A DNA stretch of 46,557 nt from Flavobacteriales bacterium (GCA_023145275.1 JAGLEB010000055.1:1-46557); one strand, 5' to 3'; counted from the stretch's first letter, positions 8,051 through 34,387 are shown. Notes: generated by a model not told the origin, from the letters alone. Made by a program: numbers and translations.

Positions 8051-8115
8051 ACATGATAATGTCATAATAAGTATTCCGGGGCAAATCGCAAACTTGTCTC
8101 GGATTCTTTTTTTTT
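8046..8115 (+). ncRNA. Candidate ~70 nt small RNA (promoter-to-terminator unit)
   Basis: Bounded by the -7 box at 8033-8040 and the T9 terminator at 8073-8115. Holds two hairpins and no ORF. Purely structural inference. Confidence 0.3.
8073..8115 (+). terminator. Rho-independent terminator (TonB receptor gene and/or candidate sRNA)
   Basis: Stem CCGGGGCAA / TTGTCTCGG (9 bp including 2 G-U pairs), followed by a T9 run at 8107-8115. Confidence 0.6.
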
Positions 8116-10469: not shown

Positions 10470-10608
10470 CTCGTTATTATCGAGTAAAAATATGTAACTT
10501 TCACGATTGAGAAATCAGTTAGTTGAATATGTAATGCTATATGTCTTTTCAGCATTTTTTTTTTGAAGAATGGCTGTAGGCTTAGTAGCTAAAAGCAATA
10601 TAAAATAG

Positions 10609-12666: not shown

Positions 12667-12948
12667 TTATCTAATATTCAAGATATATAGATAAGAAAAT
12701 AGTTAAGGATTACATAAAATACTGATATAAATCATTGCATTTTTTTTTGAATTGAAAAGGTAAATTTTGATCTTACACCATCGAAAAAAAATCAAATTTT
12801 AGCAAAGTCGGGAATATTGTAAGCATTATTAAATGAAAATGCGATAAGCTTGGAAATTTGATTTTTAAAGAAGAAAACAGAATTATAATAAAATCAGGAA
12901 TAAGGTATTTCTGTAAACATAGAATAAACACAATTAAATATAATAAAA

Positions 12949-19911: not shown

Positions 19912-19917
19912 AGAATC

Positions 19918-19950
19918 TATTAAATTACAATTTACATAGAATAAAAATGG
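19918..19950 (+). repeat. Direct repeat, left copy (ATTAAAT-TACAATTTACATAGAATAAA)
   Basis: The 13-mer TACAATTTACATA (19926-19938) recurs at 20866-20878 with similar flanks. Confidence 0.55.
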
Positions 19951-19952
19951 AT

Positions 19953-20247
19953 CTATGTCGAATATAGTGGGTGACAAAAATCTTATGGGACGTCGGCGTC
20001 ATTCTGAGGCGTAAGTTTTTTTCTAAAAACCCCAATGAGCTAATGACGATTTGAATCTCGCAAAGTCGCTAAGGCGCTAAGTAAAATACGCATTGCGACT
20101 CTGCGACTTTGAGAGATAAACACAAAGTCGTCATGGGTAACGAAGCTTGCGAAATAAGCGAAGCGATTGGCAAATGCTGAATCTTCGATTTCACGATCAC
20201 TAATTAACAATGTCTCATTTTATACTACCCACTACAAACGACATAGC
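19953..20247. mobile_element. MITE-like 295-bp element with ~20-bp terminal inverted repeats and nested internal inverted repeats
   Basis: The left end CTATGTCGAATATAGTGGGT and the reverse complement of the right end CTATGTCGTTTGTAGTGGGT match at 17 of 20 positions. An internal inverted repeat ATCTCGCAAAGTCGC (20055-20069) / GCGACTTTGAGAGAT (20103-20117) is present. No ORF. Confidence 0.5.
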
Positions 20248-20334
20248 CCCATACAACTAAAGCATATTTCTGCTCAAAAAATATACGAAGTGATTCATCA
20301 TCACAACAAAGTACTATTTTTGTTAATTCCTAAT

Positions 20335-20375
20335 AAAAAATAGTTCCGTGCTCATAGCTACGGAACTATATTTTA
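20335..20375 (-). terminator. Hairpin with a T6 run on the minus strand (likely end of the dodecin transcript; weaker on the + strand)
   Basis: TAGTTCCGT...ACGGAACTA, extended by GCT/AGC. Flanked by A6 upstream and TATATTTT downstream on the + strand. Confidence 0.55.
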
Positions 20376-20443
20376 AAGTTGTTAATTTGAAAAACTTCCT
20401 AATCTGTTAGAATAAAGGTTTTGTGGTGCATTTTGATGTCGTT

Positions 20444-20625
20444 CTCCTTTTTTTCTAGATGAGTGCCACTTAGTAATCTACCTATTTCTTATGGTGGCGT
20501 ATAAAAAACTTCAAGGTCGAGTTGATCGAAAATTTAGTAATCAGGAGTTTACTTTTGTAAATGACTGATTACTAAATCAAGATCAGCGAAGAGATTGGTG
20601 TTTTATTATAGATACTAATTATGAA
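20444..20625 (+). repeat. Dispersed intergenic repeat, copy B (next to the dodecin 3' end)
   Basis: Contains a perfect 13-bp stem ATTTAGTAATCAG / CTGATTACTAAAT around GAGTTTAC-TTTT-GTAAA. Confidence 0.7.
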
Positions 20626-20628
20626 TAT

Positions 20629-20841
20629 TTAATTGTCATCCATAGTAAAACCTAATTTTATAGTTACCTGCCATTGAAATACATCACCATCTTTTAAAGA
20701 TCCTCTTGTTTCTACGACTTCGAACCACCTAAGGTGGTGAGTTGTTTTCGCAGCTCTAGAAATTGCATTTTTTATAGCGTCATCGCTCGAAATTGTTGAT
20801 GTACCAATGATTTCTACTTTTTTGTATACGTGATTGTCCAT
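20629..20841 (-). CDS. Dodecin family (flavin-binding) protein
   Basis: 70 aa. YKKVEIIGTS..S.DDAIKNAI.RA.KT...LRWFEV.E.RG......V..WQVT.K.GF matches the dodecin pattern. Confidence 0.8.
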   Translation of the reverse strand: MDNHVYKKVEIIGTSTISSDDAIKNAISRAAKTTHHLRWFEVVETRGSLKDGDVFQWQVTIKLGFTMDDN

Positions 20842-20857
20842 AGCTTTTTTTTTAAAA

Positions 20858-20888
20858 ATTAATACTACAATTTACATAAAATAAATGA
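20858..20888 (+). repeat. Direct repeat, right copy
   Basis: See the left copy. The two copies are 940 bp apart and bracket the MITE-like element, repeat copy B and the dodecin gene. Confidence 0.55.
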
Positions 20889-21096
20889 CATTATCAATGT
20901 AACACGTTGATTATTAATGATTGAGGTGTTGTTTTGTTGTGATAATGTTTCTTTTTGACAATTAAGGCAAATTGTATGAATAGTGTCTAAGCATTATTTG
21001 GATTAATTATCTTTTAGTGTTCTATGTTGAGGGATAATTATTGTATGTTTGAATACATTATATAGTGAAACAAATCTTCTATTTTTTATCTGAAAT

Positions 21097-30507: not shown

Positions 30508-30670
30508 TGTTGAAAGCTTAAAAATTACTGTTTAATTCTGTATACTTTAAATCTTAATATGAGTAACTTGGCATAGCAAAAAAAAAGTATTGAAAAGTAA
30601 ATCTTTTTAGTGTATTAATATTTAACAACGCTAGATTCTTTTAGTAGAATTTGCGATAAATTTTTTAATA

Positions 30671-32640: not shown

Positions 32641-32676
32641 TACGCTAATGTGGTCTAAAGACCTTAACGTGCTAAG

Positions 32677-32707
32677 CCTTCATTGTTTATTCAATGAAGG
32701 TTTTTTT
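32677..32707 (+). terminator. Rho-independent terminator after sucD (convergent with the dnaX 3' end)
   Basis: CCTTCATTG (32677-32685) pairs with CAATGAAGG (32692-32700), followed by T7. Confidence 0.85.
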
Positions 32708-33322
32708 ATATAAGTTCTAATTGAAGTTTGGCGGTTAGCTTATCTAAAAGGGGATTTTTCTCAAGCATGAACATGTATTTTTCTTTGCTAGTAAATATCA
32801 ACTTTAAATTTTCGACTTCAGTGATATGTGTTCTAAATTTGATAGAATAGTTGTTGAGGTTTTCTCTAATGTATTGAATCATTTTATTGTCTTCGGAAAA
32901 CTGTGCTGAAAGAGTTTTATTTGGTACATCGAAGTGTATCGTGTTATCTTCTAGCCTTGGTTTATCAGCAACCATCGCAGAGTGTAAAAGCGTACTGCCT
33001 TGTTTCAAAAGTATCTCTGCATAGTTATTCCACAAAACAAGCATTTCTTCATATTTAAAAGAGTCTTTAGGCATGTTGCTGATATCCAGCTCACTTTCTT
33101 TGCCTTTCTTTTTCTTTTCTTCGAAATGGGAGCTTATAGAAAGAGATGTTTTTCTACCTCTTTGTTGGAAAGATGTAGTACTTCTTTTTACTGCAACTTC
33201 TTGCTCTACTTTAGCTGGCAGTTCTGCTGGTGCTTGAGGTTTTGGAGTAACAGTTACACTATCTTGAGTTACTGAAATTACAAAGCTTGGTGCTTTTATT
33301 GGGTATTTAAACTTTTTTTTTT
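32706..33322 (-). CDS. dnaX: dnaX tau-specific C-terminal extension, reachable only by a -1 shift at the A10 run
   Basis: The -1 frame is open for about 80 codons from the A-run into the 122-aa ORF 32706..33074. The linker is P/A/Q-rich (PKPQAPAELPAKVEQE). The distal part (FKYEEMLVLWNNYAEIL...) resembles Bacteroidota DnaX C-termini. Confidence 0.7.
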
Positions 33323-34387
33323 AAACCCAGAGTCAGAGTTGATAGATGATAACTGCATTAGAGTAATTTCTACAAGAAGTCTTTGGTTTTTACTTGTTTT
33401 GAAATTAATATCACATTCATTAGTGATTTCTAATGCTTGATACAAGAAATTAATATCGCATTTCTTGGATTGTTCTAGGTATTTTTCTTTTGTGTTTTTC
33501 CCTACTTCTAAAAGTTGCAATGTTGTTTCGTCTTTAGAAACTAGTAAGTCTCTAAAGTGAGAAGATAATCCTGCAATGAAATTATGTACATCGAACCCTT
33601 TATTTAATATTTCGTTTAACTGATTTAAGGCTCCAGGAATATTGTTCTCCAAAACTAAATCAGTTGTTTTGAAATAATAATCGTAATCTAGAACATTAAG
33701 ATTTTCTGCTGCATCTCTTGCGGTAATTTTATTTCCCGAAAAACTTACTACTCTATCAAACATCGAAAGGCCATCTCTCATTGCTCCATCAGCTTTTTGA
33801 GCAATAATGTGCAGGGCGTCATCTTCTGCCTCAATACCTTCTTCAGCAGCAATCATTCCTAGCTGTTGTTTCACATCGTCAACTCCAATTCTTTTGAAAT
33901 CGTAAATTTGACACCTCGAAAGTATGGTAGGAATAATTTTGTGTTTTTCAGTTGTTGCTAATATGAAAATAGCATGAGCAGGTGGTTCCTCCAATGTTTT
34001 TAGAAAAGCATTAAATGCTGATTGAGATAGCATGTGTACCTCGTCAATAATATAAACTTTAAATTTTCCTATTTGCGGCGGAATTCTAACCTGATCGTTC
34101 AAAGATCTAATATCTTCAACAGAGTTATTTGACGCTGCATCTAATTCGAAAATATTAAAGGCAAAATCATCATCGGGATCTGTGCTAGTATCTTCGTTTA
34201 TTTTCTTAGCTAGAATTCTGGCACACGTAGTTTTTCCAACTCCCCTAGGTCCAGTGAATAATAATGCTTGAGCAAGGTGATTGCTCGCTATTGCATGCTC
34301 CAAAGTGTCAGTGATAGCTTTCTGGCCAACTACATCTTTAAATGTTTTTGGTCTGTATTTTCTTGCTGATACAATGAAGTTTTCCAT
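33296..34387 (-). CDS. dnaX: DNA polymerase III subunit gamma/tau, frame-0 product (gamma-length, 363 aa)
   Basis: ARKYRPKTF, GPRGVGKTT Walker A, IIDEVHML and the SRC motif (LSRCQ). The ORF stops 5 codons after an A10 run. Confidence 0.9.
   Translation of the reverse strand: MENFIVSARKYRPKTFKDVVGQKAITDTLEHAIASNHLAQALLFTGPRGVGKTTCARILAKKINEDTSTDPDDDFAFNIFELDAASNNSVEDIRSLNDQVRIPPQIGKFKVYIIDEVHMLSQSAFNAFLKTLEEPPAHAIFILATTEKHKIIPTILSRCQIYDFKRIGVDDVKQQLGMIAAEEGIEAEDDALHIIAQKADGAMRDGLSMFDRVVSFSGNKITARDAAENLNVLDYDYYFKTTDLVLENNIPGALNQLNEILNKGFDVHNFIAGLSSHFRDLLVSKDETTLQLLEVGKNTKEKYLEQSKKCDINFLYQALEITNECDINFKTSKNQRLLVEITLMQLSSINSDSGFKKKSLNTQ
33313..33322 (-). other. A10 homopolymer (T10 on + strand): candidate slippery site in dnaX
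   Basis: Minus strand reads GGG TTT AAA AAA AAA AGT TTA AAT ACC CAA TAA. Confidence 0.8.

Follow-up and report, generated by a model that had tools for sequence, protein, structure and literature searches.

A dnaX gene divided at a run of ten adenines in a Flavobacteriales bacterium, with tau probably reached by a change of frame within the run

The tau product of dnaX is essential, tethering polymerase and helicase to the clamp loader, and the same gene can also give a shorter product, gamma. In Escherichia coli, frame 0 of dnaX encodes tau, and a -1 ribosomal shift at A_AAA_AAG, a site flanked by a Shine-Dalgarno-like element upstream and by a stem-loop on its 3′ side, yields a gamma that ends one codon later (PMC5009743). 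In Thermus thermophilus, as that review summarises Larsen et al. 2000, slippage at a run of nine A's (A9) with nearby stops in both non-tau frames gives a mixed mRNA population from which gamma and tau are made. A third arrangement was described by Antonov et al. 2013 (PMC3711429), whose GeneTack dnaX cluster contains genes in two open reading frames (ORFs), with A10 in nine genes and only -1 arrangements, from Flavobacterium johnsoniae, F. psychrophilum, Cytophaga hutchinsonii, Capnocytophaga ochracea, Chlorobium spp. and Coraliomargarita akajimensis; gamma is the standard product and tau is made by recoding, for which transcriptional realignment was proposed. That two-ORF dnaX genes need recoding for tau was restated by Atkins et al. 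2016 (PMC5009743). Here we describe the dnaX gene in a 46,557-nucleotide (nt) stretch of DNA from a Flavobacteriales bacterium (GCA_023145275.1 JAGLEB010000055.1:1-46557), the whole of which we refer to as the window. We read it as a functional two-ORF dnaX in which gamma is the default product and tau is reached through a -1 frame change in an A10 run, with RNA polymerase slippage as the main route, and give this reading a probability of roughly 0.6.

All of the dnaX features lie on the minus strand. The frame-0 ORF (33296..34387, with its ATG at 34387) encodes a product of 363 amino acids (aa), the gamma-length product of standard decoding, and comprises the AAA+ ATPase, lid and domain III. 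A domain search places PF13177, PF00004, PF22608 and PF12169 in it, each above its family cut-off, and TIGR02397 (dnaX_nterm) scores 385.8 bits against a cut-off of 250, identifying the N-terminal clamp-loader module (domains I-III). The frame closes with ...GGG TTT AAA AAA AAA AGT TTA AAT ACC CAA TAA, such that the TAA that ends gamma (33296..33298) stands 5 codons past the three AAA codons of the A10 homopolymer (33313..33322), the putative slippery site for the change of frame to tau, which occupies the same gene position in relatives. Two further stops are seen when the other frames are read. A -1-frame TAA (33321..33323) overlaps the first two A's of the run and shuts the -1 frame upstream, and frame 0 therefore joins the long downstream frame only inside the run; a +1-frame TAA lies at 33307..33309. 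Past the run, 202 codons of the -1 frame (KKKFKYPIKAPSF...LELI) follow without interruption until a stop at 32708..32706. Off-frame stop density in dnaX is 7.5-10.5% per codon and 202 codons stayed open in 0 of 20,000 shuffles, so the openness of this frame is far beyond chance. Its first ATG, GTG or TTG is the ATG at 33074, about 80 codons past the run, and the frame thus divides into a tau-specific linker with no start codon (33075..33320) and a tau C-terminal domain (32706..33074, including the stop), homologues of which are listed as PF28557/DUF8439 in precomputed tables. With one A added the two ORFs give a joined product of 560 aa, which scores 418 bits against PRK05563 (cut-off 400, residues 9-515 matched) and 684.7 bits against PRK14971, borderline to the cut-off of 685, and which aligns colinearly from end to end with the single-ORF tau proteins of Lutibacter, Polaribacter and Aureibaculum. 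A preliminary description of the locus had proposed a 363-aa frame 0 ending 5 codons past A10, a -1 frame open for about 80 codons into ORF 32706..33074, and a joined product of about 560 aa, and each of these agrees with the reading given here.

The C-terminal domain of tau, domain V, is the part that binds the Pol III alpha subunit. An AlphaFold model of the C-terminal domain (window 32709-33092) is of moderate confidence, with a mean predicted local distance difference test score (pLDDT) of 77.5, and a Foldseek search of the model against the PDB found no match at E <= 0.001. The best neighbours are weak and belong to structures of DnaA domain I (4tps_D, E = 0.027; also 2jmp and 2e0g), with the E. 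coli tau fragment 5fku_E only 20th in the list (E = 0.52, template-modelling (TM) score 0.33).

Standard transcription and translation of the gene would give the 363-aa gamma-length clamp-loader subunit, with A10 mRNA encoding a gamma that ends KKKSLNTQ. The RNA:DNA hybrid of transcription is 9-10 bp, and in programmed transcriptional realignment the nascent RNA would realign on a template homopolymer of about that length. A11 (or A8) mRNA would then encode a tau of about 560 aa with the junction GFKKKKFKYPIK, and A9 or A12 mRNA a second gamma-length product that runs to the +1-frame stop and ends KKKV. A ribosomal -1 slip on the in-phase A_AAA_AAA heptamer may contribute, and would give the same tau.

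Comparison with the described systems shows both likenesses and departures. First, as in the two-ORF dnaX genes of Antonov et al., the window has two neighbouring ORFs that meet at a poly-A run of about 10, with the second shifted by -1 in the DNA itself and with the break conserved, and the same layout is present in the Flavobacterium loci that we surveyed (L021-L023, L026 and L030). Because every sequence-level feature of the published two-ORF class is present, the window belongs to it, although it comes from a different, uncultured Flavobacteriaceae-like lineage whose closest relatives include genes of a +1 type. The preliminary description had presented the layout as the reverse of that of E. 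coli, which is correct as to the arrangement but not as a novelty, since it is already published (PMC3711429, PMC5009743). Secondly, the window and Thermus both have their A run where domain III ends and close stops in the two non-tau frames, but in Thermus the DNA frame is that of tau and slippage gives gamma, whereas in the window the DNA frame is that of gamma and slippage would have to give tau, and the run is A10 rather than A9. Thirdly, the likeness to E. coli extends to the same gene, a position after domain III, two products with a common N-terminus and a slippery site rich in Lys codons, but the window lacks the E. coli stimulators and its frames have exchanged roles. Finally, as in Shigella mxiE, the transposases of insertion sequence (IS) elements, the poly-A frameshifts of Buchnera and Blochmannia, and Citrobacter tssM, the full-length product would depend on a transcriptional indel at an A/T run. 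Unlike in those slippage-rescued genes, gamma and tau of the window are both expected to be subunits of one complex; we know of no case among the former in which the short product is a functional subunit of the same complex as the long one.

Relatives were sought by a protein search with the joined product, and DNA was then fetched for the eight closest clusters. The proteins of these eight (86-90% identity; NCBI, JGI, ENA and Logan sources) are all of 359-363 aa, and the next relatives (Lutibacter, Polaribacter and Aureibaculum, at most 61% identity) are single proteins of 560-590 aa. In the DNA of all eight closest clusters the run is at the same place and is followed by an out-of-frame ORF labelled PF28557/DUF8439 in precomputed tables, and the run and frame break, which the preliminary description had proposed looking for in close relatives, are thus conserved in 8/8. 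The junctions are of two types. The -1 type, for which tau calls for one extra A, is found in the window (TTT-A10-GTTT) and in L004/L005 (GTC-A11-TTT), and the +1 type in L001-3, L006/7 and L089-93 (GGGGTT-A10-TCTA, about 1065-1090 nt into dnaX), where tau would be reachable from A9 or A12 mRNA; two of the latter, L090 and L091, were recovered from the metagenome that also contains the window (ERZ23498500). The earlier statement that tau needs a -1 shift therefore stands for the window but not for the direction in general, which is +1 in sister lineages.

When repaired conceptually, the clade products are 560-574 aa long and follow single-ORF tau colinearly from the junction through the linker motif and on through the C-terminal domain. 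The linker motif, RRxSxLSxxSHxEEKK (R-K-x-S-L-S-I-S-S-H-F-E-E-K-K as written for the window linker), is conserved in the clade and recognisable in the tau proteins of Lutibacter, Polaribacter and Aureibaculum, and in the window it comes before any start codon. Selection was judged only by comparing the proportions of nonsynonymous (pN) and synonymous (pS) differences, with ratios of substitution rates (dN/dS) set aside because synonymous sites are saturated. Between pairs of clade members pS is 0.6-0.9, in the saturated range. pN lies between 0.03 and 0.08 for the N-terminal part and between 0.10 and 0.34 for the C-terminal domain, where pS is 0.64-0.94; in the linker, too, pN is below pS. The combination of synonymous saturation and low C-terminal pN implies that the downstream frame has been under purifying selection for a long time while out of frame, and by this evidence it is translated. 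We note that L006 (JGI 3300005264) and L007 have identical N-terminal proteins, and that L006 lacks about 40 C-terminal codons (KEYTYDAML...PKLEN), being either a deletion variant or a misassembly. A metagenome scan with the C-terminal query gave one distant locus among the matches listed, which were dominated by the low-complexity sequence KKKKFKYP.

The preliminary description had allowed for a homopolymer sequencing error, and more broadly the break could come from an error of sequencing or assembly, or from a recent inactivating mutation, in a gene whose true form is one continuous ORF: homopolymers are error-prone and one further A would restore the single ORF. A contig from a second, independent sample (SAMN18200486) is however identical to the window contig across 1750 nt, A10 included, and the run is out of frame in the eight diverged lineages and in 28/70 run-bearing species genomes of the survey presented below. 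The run and the downstream ORF persist in spite of saturated synonymous divergence, and the window contains no other gene that we saw broken at a homopolymer, the dnaX run being the sole homopolymer of at least 9 bases within a long ORF of the 46.5-kb window. Because the independent assembly has an identical A10 and the split is conserved in every close relative, we reject sequencing error, and with purifying selection acting on the C-terminal domain a pseudogene is rejected as well; the whole explanation is barely credible.

A truly split gene would make a gamma-like protein and a separately initiated C-terminal protein acting in trans, starting at ATG 33074 or, in relatives, upstream of the corresponding position. 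The ATG at 33074 does precede the conserved domain, and for each relative gene callers annotate the downstream part as an ORF of its own (83-198 aa); these called starts nevertheless vary between relatives, and the roughly 80 codons from run to ATG are open in all clade members, with a conserved motif and pN below pS. Moreover, the -1 frame opens exactly in the run, with the other two frames shut within 1-5 codons, the same run is present within the single-ORF tau genes of 42 species, and the function of tau needs a covalent link between its parts. With an open, conserved linker that lacks a start and a frame that opens inside the run, an independently translated C-terminal ORF was rejected, and we regard a split gene as very unlikely.

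To place the window in a broader context, a genome scan was made with one genome per species, giving 80 Bacteroidota loci (L008-L087) among the matches listed; the 86-90% clade is absent from these 80 and its members were added separately. The window dnaX is at most 75% identical to that of any named genome among the matches listed. An A run is present at the boundary of domain III and the linker in 70 of the 80 species, and is exactly A10 in 63, at locus G+C contents from 0.30 to 0.62 and in single-ORF genes as well as split ones; run lengths among species range from 9 to 13. Tau is encoded in frame 0 at 42 of the 70 run-bearing loci, in the -1 frame at 24 and in the +1 frame at four (L020, L032, L052 and L080). 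At 76% of loci each of the two non-tau frames meets a stop within 5 codons of the run, a pattern shown by 12% of control positions elsewhere in these genes. A neighbour-joining tree built from the N-terminal domains implies at least 16 changes of the tau frame, a number to be taken as an order of magnitude because the tree is rough. The run, its length and the flanking stops thus appear as a conserved device, with the frame encoded in the DNA being labile. As far as our literature searches show, three aspects go somewhat beyond both earlier papers: the +1 type, the near-invariant A10 that extends to single-ORF genes, and a split share of about 40% with repeated flips. A10 may be a frame-agnostic slippage device in Bacteroidota, with efficient slippage making it nearly neutral whether gamma or tau is the default and so permitting many flips; we lean slightly towards this interpretation.

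Several individual loci in the survey are worth noting. The run is absent in 9-10 loci, mostly Bacteroidaceae and other Bacteroidales, in which the linker is not lysine-rich (the loci listed as lacking it are L042, L046, L047, L049, L054, L060, L064, L079, L083 and L087). Among these, L046 carries an A10 some 300 nt downstream of this position, L049 (Pontibacter) reads AAAAAAAG, and L083 has a short frame-0 ORF (383 aa) and no run. L020 (Flavobacterium sp. YO12) has at dnaX nt 1060 an A9 within flanks (GATGGAG...GTTGAGCAAT) that hold A10 in other Flavobacterium, so that tau falls in the +1 frame rather than the -1 frame; this A9 reflects either natural variation in run length or a fault of assembly. 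The assignment of L073 to frame 0 is open to doubt, since about 140 nt before the run it carries one A more than L038 (CAGAAAC versus CAG-AAC). This A breaks the N-terminal frame at codon 316 and is itself either an assembly error or a second frameshift. L073 and L038 are both titled Chryseobacterium ginsenosidimutans and share 81% DNA identity, which suggests that they are different species.

Variation in run length also bears on the idea of phase variation at the DNA level, in which replication slippage would switch subpopulations between gamma-only (A10) and tau (A11) genotypes. Long homopolymers are hypermutable, species differ in run length (9-13), and in L020 an A9 takes the place of the usual A10 between the Flavobacterium flanks. 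However, tau is essential, and without recoding cells with A10 could not live, yet every assembly has A10 as its consensus, and the length of the run is nearly invariant, at 10 in 63/70 species. We therefore think phase variation highly improbable, a shade more so than the split gene.

Programmed -1 ribosomal frameshifting is the alternative closest to polymerase slippage, and would make tau mainly by two Lys-tRNAs slipping back on A_AAA_AAA of a uniform A10 mRNA. The run of the window does contain this heptamer in phase, rather than the A_AAA_AAG on which E. coli dnaX shifts by -1, and A-rich heptamers are shift-prone (PMC5009743). The same review describes the reversed dnaX genes in terms of ribosomal frameshifting and mentions one candidate from Chlorobium whose stimulators resemble those of E. 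coli, although it also reports that A_AAA_AAA is much less shift-prone than A_AAA_AAG in E. coli (PMC5009743). Searches for stimulators do not help this alternative. A 3′ stem-loop was sought in the 70 nt past the window run, which fold at -8.5 kcal/mol with z = -0.94 versus shuffles, in line with the earlier remark that no strong hairpin lies just 3′ of the run, and folding of the 3′ regions of 83 loci gave no significant hairpin signal (mean z = -0.31, with 4% below -2). The 20 nt that precede the run (TCAACTCTGACTCTGGGTTT) contain neither GGAG nor AGGAGG, nor anything resembling GGAGG. Folding of the upstream regions gave mildly negative values (mean z = -0.67) and no consistent helix. A 110-nt fold around the run (window 33263-33372, minus strand) has z = -2.45, which comes from a predicted pairing of GGGUUUAAA, located before and within the run, with UUUAAAUACCC after it, and so uses the run itself. 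G-rich elements before the run and C-rich elements after it recur in relatives (GGGG...CACC), and these may merely reflect the encoded amino acids. In addition, in close relatives with A10 tau has to be read in the +1 frame, beyond the reach of a -1 ribosomal shift. The preference for exactly ten A's, rather than for any seven, would better match the length of the transcription hybrid, to which it may be tied. Taken as the main route to tau, ribosomal frameshifting seems unlikely, if by no means far-fetched.

RNA polymerase slippage is favoured as the main route because orthologues with A10 need opposite shifts, the preferred run length is ten, and stops lie close to the run in both non-tau frames; the preliminary description had likewise preferred it to ribosomal frameshifting, and the comparative data support that preference. 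Two features that Antonov et al. use to recognise slippage (PMC3711429) are seen here: a homopolymeric A/T run of at least 8 nt, here A10, stands at the frame junction, and orthologues shift in opposite directions, by -1 in the window and L004/5 and by +1 in L001-3, L006/7, L089-93, L020, L032, L052 and L080.

Several points weigh against this reading. The occurrence, level and efficiency of slippage are inferred from the DNA sequence. Sequence by itself leaves room for a ribosomal -1 shift in the window, because any run of at least nine A's holds an in-phase A_AAA_AAA whatever its phase. If slippage mostly adds bases, as is reported for Thermus (PMC5009743), the +1-type relatives would need two added nucleotides, with a lower yield of tau in those lineages, for which this reading does not account. 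In the literature searched, where a 2025 preprint on frameshifting and the Walczuchella genome paper had no bearing on the question, we found no published experimental test of a two-ORF dnaX: Antonov et al. 2013 did not test dnaX itself experimentally (PMC3711429), and Atkins et al. 2016 cite only unpublished work on one Chlorobium candidate (PMC5009743).

Beyond the 3′ end of dnaX, between it and a convergent succinyl-CoA-ligase-like gene, a 12-bp hairpin with T/A tracts (32674..32703) is likely a bidirectional terminator; on the coding (minus) strand no terminator-like site was found between one dnaX ORF and the next. The other homopolymers of at least 9 bases in the window, at 391-458, 2143-2151, 8107-8115, 10555-10564 (T10), 12740-12748, 20845-20853 and 30578-30586, all sit outside ORFs of at least 90 aa. 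The 1.2-kb segment at 19912-21096 contains no ORF of at least 90 aa and no Rfam or tRNA match, and Rfam and tRNA scans of the window as a whole gave no matches.

The window adds one lineage to a described phenomenon rather than a principle, but the annotation of dnaX is affected more widely, as gene callers report this essential gene as two ORFs, one 'gamma/tau' and the other an orphan DUF8439, throughout the relatives examined, and about 40% of the run-bearing Bacteroidota species in the survey are affected. If A10 is indeed frame-agnostic, about 40% of run-bearing species would need recoding for the essential tau, and the clade of the window, with both junction types at 86-90% identity, would be a natural test bed for how the gamma:tau ratio stays constant through flips of the frame. 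An essential subunit of the replisome would depend on a decoding 'error', presumably one that occurs at a high rate, and the coexistence of -1, +1 and in-frame A10 orthologues offers a direct way to measure the slippage spectra of Bacteroidota RNA polymerases and to test whether gamma:tau stoichiometry is conserved.

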